Part shown: positions 5,095-55,545 of the stretch, piece after piece
Layout of the letters: the number at the start of each line of letters is the position of its first letter
How positions within the stretch are numbered: the first letter of the stretch is position 1
Assembly (NCBI GenBank): GCA_000092065.1
Contig: CP000587.1
Source of the DNA: Ostreococcus lucimarinus
Lineage: Eukaryota
Length of the DNA: 64,000 nucleotides
Strand: one strand, 5' to 3'
Notes under the pieces: generated by a model
Told to the model about the DNA's origin: nothing
The model's database searches: none
The model's input: the letters and a program-made list of their open reading frames with translations, nothing else
Made by a program: the position numbers and the translations under genes

Positions 5095-5739
5095 ATGTTT
5101 AACGCGATGCCGCGCGCGTCGCTCTCGCCCGCGTCGTCCTTGTTCACCTCGCCTCGCGTCGGCGTCGATTCGGACGTGTCTTTGACGAGTGTTGTGGATA
5201 ACCACCATCGGCGGGCGCGCGTCGTCGGTCGTCGCGCGCGACACGTCGCGCGCGCGTCCGAGGTCGACATCGACGCTGGTAAGTACATGCTCGAGCGCGA
5301 GGACTATCTGTTCGTCGATTGCCGTTCGTGGAAGGAGTACGACCGCTCGCACATCACAAAGCCGCCGGCGAAAACAATCAACGTGCCGCTCGCGCAGGAC
5401 GCGAGCGTGGAGGATTGGGTGAAAGCCGCGCGAGAAAAGACGCGACCTGGTATGAAATTGTTGATCGTCGACGCCGATGGGGCGAGAGTGGCGGAGTTGG
5501 TAAGCGGGCTCGAAGCCGCGGGCTACACGAACGCAGTCCCGGTGGCGGGCGGCTACGCGGCGTGGACCGCCAAGTACACCACGTTCGGGCGTAAAGTGCC
5601 ACCGAAAGGGAAATTCGTGAGTACGGGGAAGGAGGCGTTGAAGAGCGGGTTGGATCTCGATCCCAACGTCGCGAGCGCGTACGAGGAAAACTGGGGTCGA
5701 GCGCCGCCGAAGTACGGCGAGGAGGCCAAGTCGGACTGA
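5095..5739 (+). CDS. Single-domain rhodanese-like protein, probably catalytically inactive.
   Basis: Rhodanese-homology signature YLFVDCRSWKEYDRSHI...INVPL. At the expected catalytic Cys loop (LLIVDADGAR) the position is Asp. A Ser/Arg-rich presequence precedes it. The start may be an internal Met. Confidence 0.6.
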   Translation: MFNAMPRASLSPASSLFTSPRVGVDSDVSLTSVVDNHHRRARVVGRRARHVARASEVDIDAGKYMLEREDYLFVDCRSWKEYDRSHITKPPAKTINVPLAQDASVEDWVKAAREKTRPGMKLLIVDADGARVAELVSGLEAAGYTNAVPVAGGYAAWTAKYTTFGRKVPPKGKFVSTGKEALKSGLDLDPNVASAYEENWGRAPPKYGEEAKSD

Positions 5740-5879
5740 GACCACATTCGGCCGATCGCGCGTGTAATTAAAGCATTGATGTCAGAAACGTACATTTCAG
5801 AAATAACCTTCGCCTGCGCTCGGCGTCGTTTCGTGGAGGACGGTTCGCCGCCGTCCGCGTCGCGCGTCGCGCGAGCTCG

Positions 5880-6901: not shown

Positions 6902-7549
6902 ATGGCGTCAATCCCGACGCTACGCATCGCTTACGCCACGGGTAACCACGGCAAGTTTGCCGAAGCCAAGCACGTATTCAACAGACCGGAAAACCTCGCG
7001 CGAGCGAACGTGATTCTGCAGCAGTTCGACGTGGACACTGTTGAAATACAAGGCTCAAAAGTGGACATCAGCAAGCACAAGCTCAAAGAGGCGGCGACGA
7101 TTCTTTTTCAAGAGGCAGATGCGGGCGATTTTGATTACCTCCTCGTCGAAGACGTGTCACTCGATCTCGACGCCTTGAACGGATTCCCGGGGCCCTATTG
7201 CAAACCCATGCTTGAAGCGATCGGACCCGATGGACTATGGGACGTGATGTCCCGGTACGAAGATCGTAACGCGACGGTTACGTGCACGGTTGGAGCGATG
7301 GCCGTGCGAGCGGGGGGCTCTCGCGAGACGAATGTGTTTATCGGCTCTATCAGGGGAACGATGGTGCCTCCGCGAGGTGAAGTCAAGCACGGCAAGGCGT
7401 CGTGGAACAGCGTTTTCCAGCCCGCGGGATTCGCCAAGACGTTTGGAGAACTGCAGTTCGTGGAGCAAGCGGAGATTTCGCACAGGCGCATTGCGCTTGA
7501 GAAGTTTTTAGGAAACGCAATCGAGGCGGCGACAGAGGTCAACTGTTAG
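6902..7549 (+). CDS. ITPA: Inosine triphosphate pyrophosphatase (HAM1/ITPA family non-canonical purine NTPase).
   Basis: IAYATGNHGKFAEAK, DVSLDLDALNGFPGPYCK, FQP...KTFGEL and EISHRRIALEKF are the characteristic Ham1-family motifs. The start is placed at MASIPTL. Confidence 0.85.
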   Translation: MASIPTLRIAYATGNHGKFAEAKHVFNRPENLARANVILQQFDVDTVEIQGSKVDISKHKLKEAATILFQEADAGDFDYLLVEDVSLDLDALNGFPGPYCKPMLEAIGPDGLWDVMSRYEDRNATVTCTVGAMAVRAGGSRETNVFIGSIRGTMVPPRGEVKHGKASWNSVFQPAGFAKTFGELQFVEQAEISHRRIALEKFLGNAIEAATEVNC

Positions 7550-7599
7550 AAGATCTTGTAGCATGATTATTAGCCATATATAGATAGAACGGTGTCTCG

Positions 7600-9174
7600 T
7601 TAGTAGTACGTCGGATCATCGCGCGAGTTGCGAGACGGCCTCGCCCGTCTAGCATCGCCGTCGTCCCGAAACGGTCGCCTTTCGTCTTCGTAATACTCGT
7701 CCACTTCGTACTCATCTCTTGAGCGACCACCGCGACGTTCATTTTTACTTCGCGACTTGCCGAGCTCGACCGATCGTCGACCGATGAGAAACCAAATCCT
7801 AATCAACAATAGTGCGCGGCTCGGAAGCGAAAATAATTCCTCGACGACAATGTCTCGCCATTCTGCGAGCTGCCGAGCGTCGTTTTGCGACGAAACCTCC
7901 ATGACGGCTTCGTCGTAGTCATCTAACGGCTCGTGATCGTCCGCGAACTCTTCTTCGTGGAAATGCCGACCCAACCTGCGCGGTTGGCGTTTCGCGCCGG
8001 CGTTTCGCGCCGCAACCGCCACGTTCGCCACCGCGGCGAATATCGCGAGCGTCGTGATCCCGGCTGCGAGTGGAAGCACTTGCGATGAGGGTGTCGCGCT
8101 CACACCGACGCTCGATCGGCCACTGTTGCCGTCGAAACCTAGCGTGCTTCCGAGTGCGCCAGTCAGCGCGTTGAATGGATTTTGAGCCGTTTGGCGCGAG
8201 AAGGACGACGCGTCGCTCGCTGCCGACACCCCTCGTCGCGTTGTCATCGCCGACGACGCGCTCTGCGGAGATTTGCGCAAGTCAATCGCCAATGTAGGCG
8301 CTGTTCGACCCGTGGCTTCTTCAGCGAACTCGAGCAAAGCGCCGACGCTTCTGTCGGCGCTCGCGTGGCGGTACACCGGCCCTTTGCCCGCGGGCAAAGC
8401 GACGATGGTTGGAAAAGTCTTGGCGCGAAAGTATTTCGCCGCAAACTGCTTCATCTCAGCGCTATCGCATCTCAGCCGGCACACGCGCACGGTGGGGTCG
8501 TTGGCGTAGCACACCGCTACCGCCGTCCACGCCGGCTGCACGTCGTCGCACCATCGGCAATTCTCCGTCTCCACCAGCAGCATCACCGTCTCGTCCCTGT
8601 GCGTCAGCATCCCCACCACATCATCTCGCGTCAACTCTTCCACCGCGCTCGCGCTCACCACGGCGTGCGTTCGCGTCGTCGGCGCGCTCATCCGTCTCTG
8701 TTCGCTCCTCGACCGTCTCGCTCGCGCGAACTCCGCGTCGCGTTCTCGTTCGCTCATCGCCGTCGTCCGTCGACTCCCGTACTCTCCCACTTCACCTCGT
8801 CTCCATCGTCCATCATCATTCGTCGTCGGAATCAACAGCCGCTGTCCGACGTACAGCGCCGGCGCGTCTTCGTCGTTTCCTTCGTCGTCGAACCGAATCC
8901 CATTCGCCTCGCACACCGCCTCCGCGCTCGTCCCGTGCGCTCGCGCGATCTCGTTCAGCGTGTCCCCGTACATCACCGTGTGCACGTCGTAATCATCCCG
9001 ATCCCGATCCCTCGCTCGCGCGTCGTTCGTTCGCGACGCCCGCGCCGTCGTCGTCGTCGTCGTCGTCCCGCGCGACCGTTGGCGACGATTCCGCCGAAGA
9101 CGACGCCCGTCGCGCGTCGCGCCGCGCTCGATCGCGCGCGTCGACGCCGCGCCGCGCGTCGCGCGCGTCGACAT
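7600..9174 (-). CDS. Membrane protein with a LysM domain and a thioredoxin-like (CxxC) domain.
   Basis: LysM: YDVHTVMYGDTLNEIARAHGTSAEAVCEANGI...LYVGQRLLIP. Thioredoxin-like: LLVETENCRWCDDVQPAW...FPTIVALP. A transmembrane segment follows (LPLAAGITTLAIFAAVANVAVAA). The start codon is uncertain. Confidence 0.6.
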   Translation of the reverse strand: MSTRATRGAASTRAIERGATRDGRRLRRNRRQRSRGTTTTTTTARASRTNDARARDRDRDDYDVHTVMYGDTLNEIARAHGTSAEAVCEANGIRFDDEGNDEDAPALYVGQRLLIPTTNDDGRWRRGEVGEYGSRRTTAMSERERDAEFARARRSRSEQRRMSAPTTRTHAVVSASAVEELTRDDVVGMLTHRDETVMLLVETENCRWCDDVQPAWTAVAVCYANDPTVRVCRLRCDSAEMKQFAAKYFRAKTFPTIVALPAGKGPVYRHASADRSVGALLEFAEEATGRTAPTLAIDLRKSPQSASSAMTTRRGVSAASDASSFSRQTAQNPFNALTGALGSTLGFDGNSGRSSVGVSATPSSQVLPLAAGITTLAIFAAVANVAVAARNAGAKRQPRRLGRHFHEEEFADDHEPLDDYDEAVMEVSSQNDARQLAEWRDIVVEELFSLPSRALLLIRIWFLIGRRSVELGKSRSKNERRGGRSRDEYEVDEYYEDERRPFRDDGDARRARPSRNSRDDPTYY

Positions 9175-9399
9175 CGCGGTCGTCTCCTTCGTGCTTCGCG
9201 CGCGCCGCACTGCCGATCGCGCCGCGCCTCGACGTCGCGCGGCGCCCTTCCCGCCCTCGTCCAGATTTTTTCGTCTTCGCGCGCGACGGGGCCTCGCCGG
9301 CTCGAGGGGCCGCGACGCGTCGGGTGACGATCGCGCGCGGCCACCGGTGCGCGCTGAAGCGACGAGAACGCAAAGAATTTTGGTACAAATTACAATTTT

Positions 9400-16793: not shown

Positions 16794-17456
16794 TCAATCG
16801 AAGTCGCTGTCTTCGTCGTCGCTATTCAACGCCATCTTCGCCCCTCGACGAATATTCGTCGCCTTATCTATCACATTCATCGCCTTCTTAGCCGCCCGCG
16901 GGTTCGCATCGCAGTCGTTATCGCCACCTTCGTAATTAATCACCCCCTTCGAAGCGAGCACCAGACGCAAATGCTCTGTGGGAAAATCATCCGTCCCGCC
17001 GACGTCGTCGAAACCGACAATATAATCCACAACCTTGGTGTTACGAATCAGACAGAGCGTCGGCAACATCCAAATTTTAAGCTTTTCCGTCAAAAACGGC
17101 GACTTCTCGGCGTTGATTCTACAGACTAACGTCTCCGTGTGCTTCCTCGCCACCGCCGCGACGTGTTTATCCATCACCTCGCACGGCCACGACGAAGTTC
17201 TATAAAAATGTACAATCATCTTATCCTCTCCCTTCATCTTTTCGAAAAACGCTTTCTCATCATCTAAATCATTCACCACCCCGTGTCCACGCTCCAGCGC
17301 GCTCTTCCGCGCTTCGTGCGTCGATTTCATCGCCTCCAAGCGTTTCCTTCGAATATCCTCCAACGCGTCGCCGTCCATCTTTTCCAATCGATGCAGCTCA
17401 TCGTCCACGGAATCCTCCACCGCGCGCGCCATGTCGTACACCTTTTGCTCCACCAT
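16794..17456 (-). CDS. TXNDC9: Thioredoxin domain-containing protein 9 / phosducin-like protein (TXNDC9/PLP1 family).
   Basis: An N-terminal coiled region, then a thioredoxin fold lacking CxxC (KMIVHFYRTSSWPCEVMDKHV...LPTLCLIRNTKVVDYIVGFDD), and an acidic C-terminus (SDDEDSDFD). Confidence 0.8.
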   Translation of the reverse strand: MVEQKVYDMARAVEDSVDDELHRLEKMDGDALEDIRRKRLEAMKSTHEARKSALERGHGVVNDLDDEKAFFEKMKGEDKMIVHFYRTSSWPCEVMDKHVAAVARKHTETLVCRINAEKSPFLTEKLKIWMLPTLCLIRNTKVVDYIVGFDDVGGTDDFPTEHLRLVLASKGVINYEGGDNDCDANPRAAKKAMNVIDKATNIRRGAKMALNSDDEDSDFD

Positions 17457-44350: not shown

Positions 44351-45769
44351 ATGGGCGGCGCGCGGCGAGGCGCGGGCGCGGAGGACGGGACGACGGCGGC
44401 GGCGGCGACGGCGAGCGCGGCGCGAGACGACGCGGGTCGGAGGAAGACGAAGGAACGGCGCGTGCTGTTCGGGGTGCCGATGTCGCCGGAGGTGTACGCG
44501 ATCGCGTTGGTGTATTTCGTGCAGGGCGTGATCGGGCTGTCGCGGTTGGCGAAGGATTTTTATCTCAAGGATGAGCTGCGCTTGGGGCCGAGCGAGACGG
44601 CGATGATTTTGTCGATTTCGCAAGCGCCGTGGTTGATCAAGCCGCTGTGGGGGTTTCTGAGCGATTCAGTGCCGCTTTTTGGCTATCGGAGAAAGTCGTA
44701 CTTGATGGCGTGCGGCGCGGTGGGGTGTTTGGGTTGGGCATCCATGGCGACGTGGGTGGACGCGCCGGAGACGGCGCTCGTGGCGTTCACGCTCGGGTCG
44801 CTGAGCATCGCGTTTAGCGATGTTTTGATCGATAGTATCGTCGTCGCAAAGGCGAGAGGTGAAGAACAAGGGGTGTCGGGATCGTTGCAATCGCTTTGCT
44901 GGGGGTTCGTCGCCATCGGGAGCATCGTGAGTTCGTATTTTAGCGGGAGTTTGATTGAATCGTACGGCACGAGATTCGTCTTCGGCGCCACCGCGGTGTT
45001 TCCGCTCATGATCGCCGGAGCGTCGACGTTGGTGCAAGAGAAGCCGATCGTCGAGACCGCGCAGGTGTCGAGCGAGGGCGTGTTGAGTGATTTCAAGGCG
45101 ATGTCGGGGAAATTGTTCCAAGTCGCCAAGCGGCGAGACATTTGGGCGCCGGCGTTCTTCGTGTTCTTGTGGCAAGCGACGCCGAGCGCTGGGACGGCGA
45201 TGTTTTATTTCAACACGAATGAGCTCGGATTTTCGCCAGAGTTCTTAGGCCGCGTGGCCCTCGTGCGCGCGTTTTGCGCGCTCGGCGGCGTGGCGTTGTA
45301 CAACGGTTACCTCAAGCGCGTACCGCTCAAAAAGATGTTTTTGTGGACCTCCATCTTGGGCACCGCGCTCGGCTCCACTCAACTTTTACTCGTGAGTCGC
45401 ATGAATTTAGAGTTAGGGATTAGCGATAAAGTGTTCGCGCTCACCGACACCGCGGTGTTGACGGTTTTGGGCGAAGTGAGCTTCCTGCCGGTGCTCGTCT
45501 TGGCGGCGAAAATTTGCCCGGAGGGCGTAGAGGCGACGTTCTTCGCGGCGCTCATGTCTCTCTTCAACGCCGGCGGCGTGACGAGCGAGTTTCTGGGCGC
45601 TGGGTTGACCAAATCGCTCGGTGTTACCGCGGACAACTTCGACAACCTCTTTTTGCTGTTGTCCATTTGTCTCGTCACCGGTTTACTCCCGCTCGCAGCC
45701 ATCAACCTCATAGACGAAGTCAAGGACGACGACGCGGACGACGTCGAGTCGGCGCAAAAGAACGCGTGA
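44351..45769 (+). CDS. Folate-biopterin transporter (BT1 family, MFS).
   Basis: MSPEVYAIALVYFVQGVIGLSRLA...APWLIKPLWGFLSDSVPLFGYRRKSYL is the BT1 signature, with 12 predicted transmembrane segments. The start could be 44351 or 44480. The ORF-track 5' extension is antisense to CPSF1. Confidence 0.8.
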   Translation: MGGARRGAGAEDGTTAAAATASAARDDAGRRKTKERRVLFGVPMSPEVYAIALVYFVQGVIGLSRLAKDFYLKDELRLGPSETAMILSISQAPWLIKPLWGFLSDSVPLFGYRRKSYLMACGAVGCLGWASMATWVDAPETALVAFTLGSLSIAFSDVLIDSIVVAKARGEEQGVSGSLQSLCWGFVAIGSIVSSYFSGSLIESYGTRFVFGATAVFPLMIAGASTLVQEKPIVETAQVSSEGVLSDFKAMSGKLFQVAKRRDIWAPAFFVFLWQATPSAGTAMFYFNTNELGFSPEFLGRVALVRAFCALGGVALYNGYLKRVPLKKMFLWTSILGTALGSTQLLLVSRMNLELGISDKVFALTDTAVLTVLGEVSFLPVLVLAAKICPEGVEATFFAALMSLFNAGGVTSEFLGAGLTKSLGVTADNFDNLFLLLSICLVTGLLPLAAINLIDEVKDDDADDVESAQKNA

Positions 45770-45864
45770 GTTAGTTTAAGAGCGCGACGTAGACGTAGAA
45801 ATTATTACATTATTTACTACAGACTCGTGTAACCGCCATTCGCGCGCAACCTCGCCTCGAACTT

Positions 45865-45927
45865 GGTCGCACCGCGGAGTCGAACCGCGAGACGAGCGCC
45901 CTTCGGCGCCGCCGACCCTCTTGCGAC
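45865..45927 (-). pseudogene. tRNA-like remnant (T-arm plus acceptor 3' strand; too short for an intact tRNA).
   Basis: The minus strand reads ...CGCGG-TTCGACT-CCGCG-GTGCGAC-C: a perfect T-stem with a canonical TTCGAnT loop, and the GTCGCAA 7-mer at 45921-45927 pairs 6 of 7 with the acceptor 3' strand. Only 63 nt, with no D-arm and no proper anticodon arm. Confidence 0.25.
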
Positions 45928-46620
45928 GGGACCCTCCGGCTCGCCTTCTGAGGCGGCCTTCACAGGGAAAATATATACGGGTGATCTAAGGAAGTAGAAA
46001 ACTAACCAATAATTGCCGCCGTGCAGTGCGGTTCGTTCGTTCGTTTTGTTTGCCTATGTTCTGAAAAACGTTGGAGGACAAATTTTGATCTACCGCAGGA
46101 TACCGTGTTTTGTTTTGCGTGAGGCTGAAAGATGGTCGAAACATGCATGTTGTGATCTGGAGGATCGAGCGCGTAAACGAGTAAACAAAAGAGGTTCACG
46201 TAAACCTGATCAAGAGCGCCCATAATAAATGCTATCGAAGCAAGCATATCAACATGATGGATGACTGCGGAGAATAAATCCAAGCGAAGCGCGCGAAGCG
46301 CGTGAATGATAAAGAACAAACAGACAAACTTTTTCTCGCACTATCGGCGAAGGAGGATCCAAAATAACGCATCGGCGATCTACGAATGAAACGACGCGAC
46401 GCTTGAAAACACTCAAAAAGCAAACCTCGTCCAAAGCGCGACGAAACGTGCGAAAAACGCGCGCGCGTCCGCGTTCGCGGTGACATTCTTTCTGCGCGTC
46501 GCGATCAAACGTACCGCCCGAGGGCGAACAACGGTAAACGGTAAACATAGAGTGCGCGTACGCTATCTTCGTCGCGGAAATCGCGCGCCGCGCGCCTGCG
46601 TTCGCGTGCGTGCACGAGTT

Positions 46621-46633
46621 TTTTTTTTTTTCG
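46621..46633. repeat. T13 homopolymer (A13 on the minus strand), followed by (gaat)3.
   Basis: Seen directly in the sequence. It could act as a Pol III terminator on the plus strand or be a poly(A) remnant on the minus strand. Confidence 0.9.
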
Positions 46634-46914
46634 CCCTAACGAATGAATGAATGCGTGCGTGATCGATTCACGCGAGATCTCCCGCCGTCCCGCTCGCGCG
46701 CGCCTTTCCCTGCCCCCCGCGCGAGCGCTCGAGCGCCGCCTCGCCCTCGCGCGCGCTCGGAGCGTCGACGCGCGCGCGACGCATCGCGCGCGCGTCGAGC
46801 TGCCGCGCCGATCCCTTCGCCCGCGGGGTGCCCTCGGGGTCGCGCATATTCGGACATTCGGACGATTTACGACGCACGCCGCGCTCCCGCGATGGCGTCG
46901 AAGACGTCCGCAGT

Positions 46915-53471: not shown

Positions 53472-54782
53472 TCACGATTTGAAGTTGACGTACGACGACG
53501 TGCGAAGGGCGTTGACGATTTCGTCGCTGTACCCCTTGCCGCCGTTGATCGGCCGCACCGCGCGCACGGGGGCTAGGACTTCTTCCGAGTAGTCGCACTT
53601 GAACCCGCCGATGACGGCGTCGAGAAGTTCTTTATCTTCGACGCACGCCATGAGCATGCGCGGCGAGCCGTACACCTCGCTCACGAGCTCGAATTCGTTC
53701 GCGTCGGCCGCGCTGAGGTTCTGCACGTCCCACGAGAGCGTTCGCATGACGTCGTCCACCAACGCCGGCGGACATCTCAAACCCATCAAACGCTGCGCCA
53801 GGGCGACGCGCACGCCCATGGAATCCGGCGCGCCCTCGGGCGCCGCGTTCAGCTCGGCGATTTTCGCGTCGTTCTCCGCCGCCGCGAAGTTGTCTCGGTA
53901 AATGCGCGACACGCCCGCGATGTGGTCGACGCCGATGACGGCGACCACCGTCCCGTCGTCCGTCTTCTCCGCGCACTCCTTGATCGTCGACGCCATGACG
54001 CGATCGCGCTCGTCGATGATGATTCGCTCGAAGCAATCGTCCACGCGCTCGTTCGCCTTGGCCGCTAACGGGTGATCCTCCGGTAACAGCAGGCGATAGT
54101 TCCGCTCGCTCTGCGCCGCGAACGTCCCGTCCAATTCCTCCAGCGTCGGCGTCGCCATCAATCGCTTATACGTCACCGCTTTCGGTCGATCGCCGTAAAT
54201 CACCGTCGCTCCGACCGCGAACGCCGCGGCGTACACCAAGACCTCGGGCGGTAACTGCGCCTTCATGTTTTCCCACTGCGGCGAGTCCGCGATGGGTCCC
54301 AGCTCCCCCTTCAGCGCCCCCGCCAATCGCGTCACGAACACCAGCGCCTCCGGCGCCGTCGCCGCGTCCACCATCATCGCCGTCACTCCTTGCTCGTAAT
54401 TCACCGCGTTTCCCGTCGCGTCGCCGTGTTCGCTCGTCACCGCCGTCTCCACGACGACGACTTTCGGCCCTCGTCTCAAAATGTACTCCGCCGCGTCGTG
54501 CGCCCCCTCCACCAGGTGCGACACCCCGAACGCGACGCACCGCTCGTCGAGCGGCGTGAACGTTCCCGTCGTCCACGCGTCCGGCGTCGCCGTCGCCGTC
54601 GTGGACGGCGACAGATCGAAGTCGTCCTCCTGGTCCTCGAAGAACGCCCTCGGCGCGCGCGCGACGCGAGCGGGACGCGCGCGGGACGCCGTCGATCGCG
54701 CGATTCGCGCGCGCGTCGGACGACGCGCGTTGGACGACGCGTTCGCGCGCATCGTCGACGCGCGCGCGATCGAGGCGCGCAT
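53472..54782 (-). CDS. TraB/PrgY/GumN family protein.
   Basis: RGPKVVVVETAVT...DGTVVAVIGVDHIAGVSRI resembles TraB-family motifs (VVLVGTAHVS; VVVVELC...). A Ser/Arg/Ala-rich N-terminal presequence. Confidence 0.55.
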   Translation of the reverse strand: MRASIARASTMRANASSNARRPTRARIARSTASRARPARVARAPRAFFEDQEDDFDLSPSTTATATPDAWTTGTFTPLDERCVAFGVSHLVEGAHDAAEYILRRGPKVVVVETAVTSEHGDATGNAVNYEQGVTAMMVDAATAPEALVFVTRLAGALKGELGPIADSPQWENMKAQLPPEVLVYAAAFAVGATVIYGDRPKAVTYKRLMATPTLEELDGTFAAQSERNYRLLLPEDHPLAAKANERVDDCFERIIIDERDRVMASTIKECAEKTDDGTVVAVIGVDHIAGVSRIYRDNFAAAENDAKIAELNAAPEGAPDSMGVRVALAQRLMGLRCPPALVDDVMRTLSWDVQNLSAADANEFELVSEVYGSPRMLMACVEDKELLDAVIGGFKCDYSEEVLAPVRAVRPINGGKGYSDEIVNALRTSSYVNFKS

Positions 54783-55545
54783 GACGCGTCGCGCGGGCGT
54801 GTGTCGAAGCGATGTTTAACGCGTTCAGGGTTTGAGACTCGTCTCGCATTACGCGCCGCTCGCGCGGCGAGCGTCGATATCGTGCGCCCACGCGGACGTC
54901 TTGACGTGCGACGTCGTGGTAAACGTCTTACCGGCCTCACCGCCGACGACGTCCTTATCCTGCGTCGTCGCGCGCCGTCGTCGTCGTCGTCGTCGTCAGT
55001 CGGTCCGTCGGCGCGTCCGTTCGCGTCCCGATTCGCGTCTCGCGTCGTCCAATCCTCGCGCGTTCGCGCGCCCGCGTCGTCGTCCGCGGCGCGCACCTTC
55101 GGCACGTCGTTCCCCTTTCGCGCCTTTGCCTCGCTTTTGGCCCTCGCGACGTCTTCCTCGCGTCGTCGCGCCTCGGCGAGCTCGCGCTTTCCCGCGCGTC
55201 GCGCCCTGTTCTTCTTGTTGTTGCTCCGCGCGTGTCTCGGCAGCGCCGCGGTCGCCGCGCGCGACGCGCTCGACGGCGCTTTCGTCGGCGTTTTTCGCGT
55301 CGTCGCCGGCGCGCCGCCGCGTCCGAGCGCGCGTCGCAGCAGCGCGAACGCGACGGCGCCGACGACCGCCAGCGGCACGAAAAGATTCGTCGACGCCGCG
55401 TCGTCGCGCGTCGTCGCGCGTCGTCGCGACGCGTCCGAGCGCGCGCCGCGAGCGTCGCGTCGCGTCGACGCGCGCGCCATGCGAGCGCGCGGGCGCGCGC
55501 GACGCCGCGCGTCGACGATTCGGTGTCGCACAGTGACGCGCGTCG

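Follow-up and report, generated by a model that had tools for sequence, protein, structure and literature searches.

We examined a 64,000-nucleotide stretch of Ostreococcus lucimarinus DNA (GenBank assembly GCA_000092065.1, contig CP000587.1; hereafter the window) and, within it, the long low-GC island that separates a folate/biopterin transporter gene (BT1) from an SDR gene. In our judgment there is an even prospect that this island is a ~700-nt non-coding RNA gene on the minus strand, ending in a 3'-end processing module composed of a kink-turn (K-turn) hairpin and a tRNA-like structure (TLS). For the module itself, comparison among relatives fixes the structure, the strand, the genomic position and the phylogenetic range, and it reveals selection: as judged from these alignments, the module is under purifying selection, and its TLS is a conserved tRNA-like fold without decoding capacity. 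The original prediction had described the island as bearing a tRNA-like remnant, a UUCG-type hairpin and a terminal T13 run. The features that it listed are present, with coordinate offsets of 1–2 nt, and comparative structure evidence supports the presence of a discrete non-coding RNA element whose T-arm and acceptor stem resemble those of a tRNA. What it missed is the K-turn hairpin directly 5' of the TLS; moreover, the alignments mark the “remnant” as the best-conserved piece of the island, not a decayed gene.

Positions 45866-45967 of the minus strand form a 102-nt module in which the K-turn hairpin is joined by a 4-nt linker to a Y-shaped TLS. In Ostreococcus, this module ends a conserved non-coding unit of ~700 nt (45866-46563). 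The parts of the unit, in 5' to 3' order of the RNA and with the elements of the TLS listed beneath it, are as follows.

46549..46563, minus strand: block A (GCGUACGCGCACUCU / GCGUACGC), with the palindromic core CGTACG; the 5' limit of conservation.
45968..46548, minus strand (assigned from continuity with the K-turn and TLS): body of the unit, conserved within Ostreococcus only.
45932..45967, minus strand: K-turn hairpin, with C-stem CCC/GGG, 3-nt bulge UGU and tandem G-A/A-G pairs (GA...GA).
45928..45931, minus strand: pyrimidine-rich linker UCCC, 0-8 nt long in relatives (alignments A5, A7 and A8).
45866..45927, minus strand: TLS, 62 nt, delimited by sequence, covariance model and covariation.
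45922-45927 with 45866-45871, minus strand: acceptor-like stem GUCGCA/UGCGAC of the TLS, 6 bp plus an A-G mismatch.
45914-45921, minus strand: TLS junction AGAGGGUC, including a GGU that is invariant in Ostreococcus.
45891-45913, minus strand: TLS hairpin of 9 bp, with the loop GAAG on the functional strand.
45873-45889, minus strand: T-arm, CGCGG-UUCGACU-CCGCG.

The T-arm (GGUUCRANUCC, 5-bp stem) and the 6-bp acceptor-like stem are found, with compensatory changes, in all 13 aligned sequences. The TLS has neither a D-arm nor a 7-nt anticodon loop; only 32 nt separate the acceptor stem from the T-stem, and across relatives they hold a junction of 8-9 nt and a hairpin of 9-10 bp whose loop varies in sequence and in length (3-8 nt). 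The original prediction had a T-arm and a 7-bp acceptor helix within 63 nt (45865-45927). Both elements stand, but the helix comprises 6 bp plus the A-G mismatch and the structure is one nucleotide shorter. Similarly, its UUCG-type hairpin exists at 45891-45913, but reads GAAG on the functional strand, in a loop that is not conserved between species. The window TLS scores 93.4 bits with covariance model R1. By itself, the T-loop motif GGTTCRANTCC is not significant: the window contains one match where 0.29 are expected, and 24 of 100 shuffled sequences reach one. Thus, it is because of the comparative evidence, not the single-sequence motif, that we regard the TLS as more than a chance occurrence.

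The C-stem, the 3-nt bulge, the tandem G-A/A-G pairs and the non-canonical stem of the consensus kink-turn are present in every homologue. The non-canonical stem follows the tandem G-A pairs and is capped by a variable hairpin. The arrangement CCC-NNN-GA-(hairpin)-GA-GGG is invariant in the 13 sequences; one compensatory change in the C-stem (UCC/GGA) occurs in lineage L037, and the non-canonical stem also covaries. Among homologues, the 3b-3n position is U-G, A-G, A-C or C-A. A regular expression for the K-turn, applied to both strands of the window, returned this site and one other match. The latter (17356-17411, minus strand) falls inside a long open reading frame (ORF; 16794-17456, minus strand) and is probably due to chance.

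Homologous loci were recovered by exact-protein look-ups and one metagenome scan, and the module was located in them with a regular expression followed by a covariance model. The same locus was found in the same species (99-100% identical) and in ten further Ostreococcus lineages, a set that covers O. tauri chromosome 7 and an O. mediterraneus-like group. The gene order CPSF160(-)/BT1(+)/long spacer holds in all of them, with spacers of 1.1-1.6 kb, and the modules score 74-108 bits. Every locus carries a single copy, ~80-130 nt past the BT1 stop codon and always on the strand opposite to BT1. Altogether, the module is syntenic and convergent with BT1 in 11 Ostreococcus lineages, two Micromonas lineages and one Bathycoccus-like relative. 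It was found once per locus in the 336 kb searched and once in the 64-kb window; within that sequence, a search for further copies, which the original prediction had advised, yielded none. The protein divergence across this range is considerable: CPSF160, whose gene adjoins BT1, is 83% identical between the window and O. tauri and 49% identical between the window and Micromonas commoda.

In M. commoda RCC299 and a second Micromonas-like scaffold, 1.2-1.3 kb of gene-free DNA lies beyond BT1 of the BT1-CPSF160 pair. It harbors modules in the equivalent place and on the equivalent strand (37 and 27 bits), with identical K-turn strands and with acceptor stems changed to UCUCAA/UUGAGA and CUCUCG/CGGGAG. 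A more distant locus, L094, has a CPSF160 that is 41% identical, the Ostreococcus-type gene order and ~45% GC; it probably derives from a Bathycoccus-like alga. Its module lies 78 nt from BT1 and scores 36 bits. There, three tandem K-turn hairpins precede the TLS (5576-5745, plus strand), compared to one in Ostreococcus and Micromonas. These read CCCGAUGA...CGAGGG, CCCAGUGA...CGAGGG and CCCGAUGA...AGAGGG, at a spacing of 60-75 nt. A CGUAGAU motif, like those of the Ostreococcus body described below, sits between the first two.

Covariation was assessed on model-guided alignments. For ten distinct sequences, 93.7% of the cells were paired, compared to 34-50% when the partners were slid by 1-3 columns; 16 of the 27 pairs had changed on both sides, and none of 500 shuffles reached the observed values. 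Addition of O. tauri and the two Micromonas-like sequences (L094, found later, was left out) gave 13 sequences with 93.3% of the cells paired (37-47% in the slid controls) and double changes in 17 of the 27 pairs; again, none of 500 shuffles matched the data on any of five measures. The alignment was fitted to the structure, and hence the slid control is more telling than the shuffles. Compensatory changes affect 5/6 acceptor pairs, 8/9 hairpin pairs and 2/5 T-stem pairs, and all five helices of the module covary. Because of the G-U pairs, the structure is specific to the minus strand.

Upstream of the module, conservation within Ostreococcus continues. Between the window and its closest relative (L007), identity is ~97-98% from 45866 to ~46560, apart from eight indels, most of which have lengths that are not multiples of three. 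It stops exactly at the last acceptor base (45866) and drops beyond block A. The latter is kept in 8 of 11 Ostreococcus lineages, and in those eight it lies 642-700 nt from the TLS 3' end; from its position, it is a candidate promoter-proximal element or RNA 5' end. For O. tauri, we would predict a transcript start near the GCGTACGC block. No conserved ORF or coding signal was found: six-frame tblastn between species gave only matches of inconsistent frame and strand, and a 105-aa ORF at 46002-46319 is broken by indels in L007. The body consists of short conserved linear blocks, A-rich tracts and a repeated UUCAGA / YAGAU motif, with UUCAGA occurring 14 times (1.2 expected). RNAalifold, run on 11 and on 4 body sequences, returned no helix with consistent covariation, and two pairings that we considered (CCGCAG/CUGCGG and CCUCC/GGAGG) were rejected as unsupported outside one clade.

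A pyrimidine-rich YAG-A motif (UUCAGA, CGUAGAU, CCGCAGA) recurs three to six times per RNA at the conserved blocks, both in the window (45968-46548, minus strand) and in loci L007-L059. These motifs resemble 3' splice sites, but they occur without a matching Ostreococcus-type 5' splice site or branch point. The Ostreococcus-specific intron signals are GTGCGTG and ACTGAC (PMC2483917); both were absent from the RNA strand in 11 of 11 lineages and inconsistent between species on the opposite strand.

In Micromonas, a sequence that resembles an intron 3' end is found ~20-45 nt upstream of the K-turn and on the same strand. It comprises a putative branch point (CUGAC/CUGAU), a pyrimidine tract and CAG:

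L092 5797-5950, plus strand: intron-3'-end-like sequence, GCUGAUCUCUCUCUUCAG, followed by G.
L093 ~5730-5790, plus strand: intron-3'-end-like sequence, CGCUGACGUUGUCUUUUCAG, followed by G.
M. commoda CP001325.1, 41.1-42.4 kb: candidate 5' splice site CAGA/GUAAGA (slash marks the junction) and predicted 3' splice site CUCUUCAG, followed by G.

If this splice site is real, the Micromonas RNA would derive from a longer, spliced RNA polymerase II (Pol II) precursor, with the module as a short terminal exon.

How might such a module act? We modeled the mechanism on MALAT1/mascRNA, on the t-elements of plant mitochondria and on the mncR67-tRNA-Glu dicistron of O. tauri. The non-coding RNA (minus strand, 45866-46563) would run towards the convergent BT1 gene. 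The TLS keeps an acceptor stem, a T-arm and, in Ostreococcus and L094, a GG-containing junction that could imitate the D-loop/T-loop elbow; acceptor stem, T-arm and elbow are the parts recognized by tRNA end-processing enzymes. Protein-only RNase P (PRORP) would cut on the 5' side and RNase Z on the 3' side. The predicted RNase P cut, 5' of G45927, would leave the linker (45928..45931) as the 3' tail of the upstream RNA, and a mature 3' end would thereby arise without polyadenylation. Cleavage would probably also stop transcription a few tens of nucleotides short of the BT1 3' end and so keep it from running antisense into BT1. The K-turn, which would lie 4-8 nt from the new end, could be occupied by an L7Ae-family protein (Snu13/15.5K-like) that blocks 3'-to-5' trimming in the manner of small nucleolar RNP (snoRNP) proteins; such binding may itself belong to the function of the RNA. 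Cleavage, protein binding and any downstream function are here argued by analogy.

Several observations prompted this proposal. The parts of the TLS that are kept are one, and the literature on PRORP, t-elements and dicistrons of non-coding RNA and tRNA is the other: the O. tauri PRORP has RNase P activity on pre-tRNA, and PRORP cuts the t-elements that mark transcript ends (PMC3858429), while a dicistronic precursor of a non-coding RNA (mncR67) and tRNA-Glu has been validated in O. tauri (preprint 10.64898/2026.07.10.737489). The putative location of the module at a 3' end is suggested indirectly by the conservation boundary at the last acceptor base and by the near-constant length from block A to the TLS. 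On the minus strand, no consistent poly(A) signal (UGUAA) occurs downstream of the TLS. Nor did we find a consistent RNA polymerase III (Pol III) terminator after it: T5 is present in L007 and T4 in L037, L016 and L020, but no such run lies close by in the window or in the other lineages covered, and the conserved unit holds internal T5 runs. A broader version of the proposal, in which protein-only RNase P forms the 3' end of a Mamiellales-wide long non-coding RNA (lncRNA) by cutting at a D-armless tRNA mimic and a K-turn ribonucleoprotein (RNP) caps that end, we advance only tentatively, as somewhat improbable on present evidence.

Certain results weigh against the ~700-nt RNA gene. A profile of the Ostreococcus body (nhmmer) finds nothing in the spacers of Micromonas or L094; by this measure, the deeply conserved unit is the module alone, the only part kept beyond Ostreococcus. 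The strand of the body is taken from its continuity with the module, and it is by inference that we place the upstream 600 nt in the same transcript. The GGU of the junction is not kept in Micromonas, and the three K-turns of L094 suggest that the K-turn is more than an end cap. MALAT1 has a triple helix rather than a K-turn, which makes the protective role of the latter an analogy. Finally, a catalogue of O. tauri RNAs, built from libraries restricted to 50-300 nt and with profiles near a coding sequence discarded, has no entry at chromosome 7, 83-86 kb, and thus records no stable ~62-nt TLS product. Of its 259 candidates (131 snoRNAs and 128 other medium-size RNAs), not one falls in the 32-146 kb interval of chromosome 7.

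The main rival, which we consider improbable but not negligible, makes the ~105-nt module itself the gene: a small stable RNP-forming RNA, either a tRNA mimic or a partner of a K-turn protein, with the rest of the island serving as promoter, lineage-specific leader or regulatory DNA of the neighboring genes. Conservation of the module alone beyond Ostreococcus fits this idea, as do the T-runs that directly follow the acceptor stem in some lineages (L007 and L037, as above) and those just upstream of the Micromonas K-turn (T7 or T5). The T-loop sequence doubles as a Pol III box B. However, the catalogue of 50-300-nt RNAs has no entry for the O. tauri locus, and the inconsistent terminator and the internal T5 runs speak against the Pol III transcript that the original prediction had entertained. 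Inspection revealed no box A match, and a search for a Pol III type-3 promoter of the upstream-sequence-element type (CCCRTAA) found no conserved site. No promoter is conserved at a fixed upstream distance; the TATATA element is confined to the window species and L007. The high conservation in Ostreococcus continues unbroken for 600 nt upstream, and the apparent 3' splice site in Micromonas implies a longer precursor.

A polycistronic or unusually long box C/D-like small nucleolar RNA (snoRNA) locus is unlikely. According to this explanation, the K-turn would be the C/D (or C'/D') motif and the TLS would serve release, the reverse of the order in plant tRNA-snoRNA dicistrons. Precedents exist: O. 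tauri has ten intergenic snoRNA clusters yielding unusually long stable forms (PMC7671301), and in Arabidopsis a tRNA-snoRNA precursor is processed by PRORP and RNase Z (PMC3858429). In most lineages, moreover, the 5' K-turn strand resembles a C box (GAUGAUGR). Its 3' strand, however, is NGGA or CGA rather than the D box CUGA, and what lies between the boxes is a self-paired hairpin, hence no guide; we rejected a simple box C/D snoRNA on the same grounds. By inspection, neither strand of the body has conserved C/D or H/ACA box pairs, no Rfam snoRNA matched in six lineages, and the O. tauri catalogue places none of its 131 snoRNAs and none of its 128 other medium-size RNAs at chromosome 7, 83-86 kb.

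It is very improbable that the island holds a relic (a tRNA pseudogene, tRNA-derived short interspersed nuclear element [SINE] or retroelement fragment) or features that act on the DNA level only, such as a replication origin, a centromere-like AT island, a TFIIIC B-box insulator, or a promoter or untranslated region (UTR) of BT1 or SDR. In its favor, B-box sequences can serve as TFIIIC sites, the island is low in GC and contains simple repeats, and the T-loop motif taken by itself does not reach significance in the window. Nevertheless, the covariation, as read from the alignments, largely refutes this explanation. Compensatory double changes are found in all five helices, and the strand-specific G-U pairs indicate that selection acts at the RNA level, which tells against an origin or centromere-like island. 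An element that is single-copy in the 336 kb and the window searched, syntenic across three genera, in lineages where CPSF160 is only 41-49% identical, and under purifying selection is not expected of the pseudogene, decayed retroelement or SINE that the original prediction had considered, and no target-site duplications were seen around the module. The 96 nt directly after the BT1 stop, where a BT1 3' UTR would lie, are the least conserved part of the spacer (window vs. L007), and the T13 and GAAT repeats are not conserved.

Least probable of all is the missing Ostreococcus telomerase RNA or a known large RNA (RNase MRP, SRP or U3) too divergent for Rfam. A length of ~700 nt and a three-way junction fit the stability domain of a telomerase RNA, and none has been identified in O. 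lucimarinus (0/6 candidate loci), but in 10 lineages neither spacer strand contains an 8-mer of the Ostreococcus telomere repeat, (CCCTAAA)n, in keeping with the original finding of no template, and RNase MRP, U3, the small nuclear RNAs and an SRP RNA have annotated loci elsewhere in O. tauri (PMC8287931 for the candidate loci and the repeat).

Database and motif searches did not place the module in a known class. Rfam 15 gave no match at gathering score in the window and only noise at E≤10 (45600-46900) or at E≤5 in five relatives, so that the Rfam check suggested by the original prediction returned no family. ARAGORN, with and without its intron mode, found no tRNA in the window, L001, L007 or L013; a single odd call in L010 was not reproduced in its relatives. 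A canonical tRNA gene was rejected on these negative results and on the missing D-arm and 7-nt anticodon loop. So, too, were a tRNA-Sec and a permuted or intron-containing tRNA, given that the UCA in the K-turn loop of the window is not conserved and that the strand order, by inspection, is normal. A selenocysteine insertion sequence (SECIS) element was discarded as well: helix II has only 4-8 bp, the loops are without the conserved AA, and there is no upstream ORF. Among the papers covered by a literature search, none described an Ostreococcus lncRNA, a K-turn/tRNA-like module, or this locus or architecture.

The genomic setting of the unit can be summarized as follows. The spacer extends from the BT1 stop (45769) to the SDR ATG (46915) and, at 1,145 bp, is the longest among the surrounding gene calls of L001; the original prediction had put it at about 1 kb. 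Its GC content is 0.513 at 45770-46640 and 0.446 at 45975-46420, compared to 0.616 for the whole window. The claim that it was far more AT-rich than anything else was overstated: the 870-nt stretch with the lowest GC is coding sequence at ~51.3-52.6 kb (0.493). Other features of the spacer are:

45828..45832, plus strand: TGTAA, candidate poly(A) signal of the convergent BT1, from motif position.
45972-45977: TATATA, 4 nt from the K-turn.
46619-46631: T13 run, a simple sequence within the diverged spacer that separates the RNA unit from the SDR gene.
46641-46652: (GAAT)3, simple sequence in the same diverged spacer.

The original prediction had noted both repeats, with the T13 run set at 46621-46633. 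In L007 that run is broken (TTTCGTTTTCT) and the GAAT copy number differs; more distant relatives have neither repeat, and 46560-46660 is likewise heavily diverged between the window and L007. By these comparisons, T13, (GAAT)3 and TATATA are bystanders that show no conservation and lie beyond the conserved unit or at its margin. TGTAA is the poly(A) signal of green algae, and TGTAAC is also present on the BT1 strand in O. tauri, L013, L016 and L020. The TGTAA at 45828 is likely the BT1 poly(A) signal, which would put the BT1 3' end a few tens of nucleotides from that of the TLS.

Upstream of the SDR gene, 46766-46797 is a 32-nt, GC-only, near-perfect palindrome (CGACGCGCGCGCGACGCATCGCGCGCGCGTCG) that is kept in L007; it was the source of the only weak Rfam noise matches (microRNA and internal-ribosome-entry-site models). 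A second long spacer (~760 bp) is found at ~54670-55440 of the window (from L001 17758-18522), between divergent TraB-like and bromodomain genes. On O. tauri chromosome 7 (L059 2197-2631), a 144-aa gene without Pfam domains is annotated between the SDR gene and the island. The same interval of other Ostreococcus loci has only short, inconsistent ORF calls (e.g., 160 aa in L020), and the O. tauri gene may be a mis-annotation. Locus L026, from the same species as the window, carries a 2.2-kb insertion (7150-9325; window ~45815) between the BT1 stop and the TLS. Its flanks are duplicated (99 nt on one side, a repeated TTACTACAGACTCGTGAAC on the other), and its 594-aa ORF matches no Pfam family. 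This insertion is strain-specific and does not disrupt the RNA module.

Few marine picoeukaryotes are as abundant as Ostreococcus and Micromonas, whose genomes also rank among the most compact of eukaryotes. Because the genomes are so compact, 1.1-2.5 kb of gene-free DNA kept at one position throughout the order comes at a cost and presumably has a function. If the ~700-nt RNA and its processing are real, the RNase P-dependent formation of lncRNA 3' ends, known from vertebrate MALAT1/NEAT1, would extend to a green-lineage nuclear genome and to protein-only RNase P, and PRORP would have a natural nuclear non-tRNA substrate in an organism open to gene replacement by homologous recombination. The K-turn RNP would be a new kind of end-protecting element and, next to the triple helix and snoRNP ends, a third way to stabilize lncRNA 3' ends that are not polyadenylated; with one to three K-turn hairpins, each RNA may also offer a dedicated site at which an L7Ae-family protein (e.g., Snu13) is docked or buffered. 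The RNA would have lain tail-to-tail with the folate/biopterin transporter gene since before the Ostreococcus-Micromonas split. The covariance model describes an RNA family missed by Rfam, by tRNA finders and by the O. tauri 50-300-nt RNA catalogues.

How does this module compare with known systems? MALAT1 and MEN-beta (NEAT1_2), with mascRNA, share several features with it: a TLS without a functional anticodon with which a long non-coding Pol II transcript ends (here proposed), a 3' module that is the most conserved part, and a structured element directly upstream of the predicted RNase P site. In the algae, however, the stabilizer would be one to three K-turn hairpins instead of a U-rich/A-rich triple helix, the TLS has no D-stem, and the enzyme would be a protein-only RNase P; the sequences are not homologous, no Rfam family matches at E≤10, and algal cleavage is predicted from sequence. 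The O. tauri mncR67-tRNA-Glu pair comes from the same genus and likewise joins a non-coding RNA to a co-transcribed tRNA, in a joint precursor validated for mncR67. In plant tRNA-snoRNA dicistrons, tRNA-processing enzymes set the ends of the non-coding RNA. The island differs from such dicistrons in that the partner is not a tRNA (no anticodon loop or D-arm, and negative in ARAGORN and Rfam) and in that the upstream RNA is ~640 nt rather than medium-size and carries a K-turn. The t-elements of plant mitochondria are also tRNA-like structures of the green lineage within longer transcripts, cleaved by PRORP and marking transcript ends, but they are organellar, have no adjacent K-turn and share no sequence homology. 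GUT15 of Arabidopsis, a Pol II lncRNA from which a tRNA-like molecule arises (PMC6152437), is another green-lineage lncRNA with a tRNA-like part; that part is intronic and affects splicing, with no K-turn and no homology.

With the K-turn RNAs bound by L7Ae/15.5K/Snu13 (the U4 5' stem-loop, box C/D RNAs and U3 B/C), the hairpin shares the exact sequence signature and, with the U4 5' stem-loop, the form of a local hairpin. In contrast to these, the island has no Sm site, U6-pairing region, guide or D box CUGA, and its protein binding is a prediction. The tRNA-like domain of tmRNA likewise has an acceptor stem and a T-arm but no D-stem, and a long helix replaces its anticodon arm. Indeed, a DNA-pattern scan of IMG/VR viral contigs returned only phage tRNAs and tmRNAs, as weak matches of ≤33 bits against the 74-108 bits of the Ostreococcus homologues. 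tmRNA differs in that it belongs to bacteria or organelles, brings the two ends of the RNA together in its acceptor stem and has an mRNA-like part in between. None of these closest known systems combines a K-turn hairpin with a D-armless tRNA mimic. From the comparative data, we regard the assignment of the module to a new RNA family as well supported and, by analogy with the systems above, the processing mechanism as plausible.

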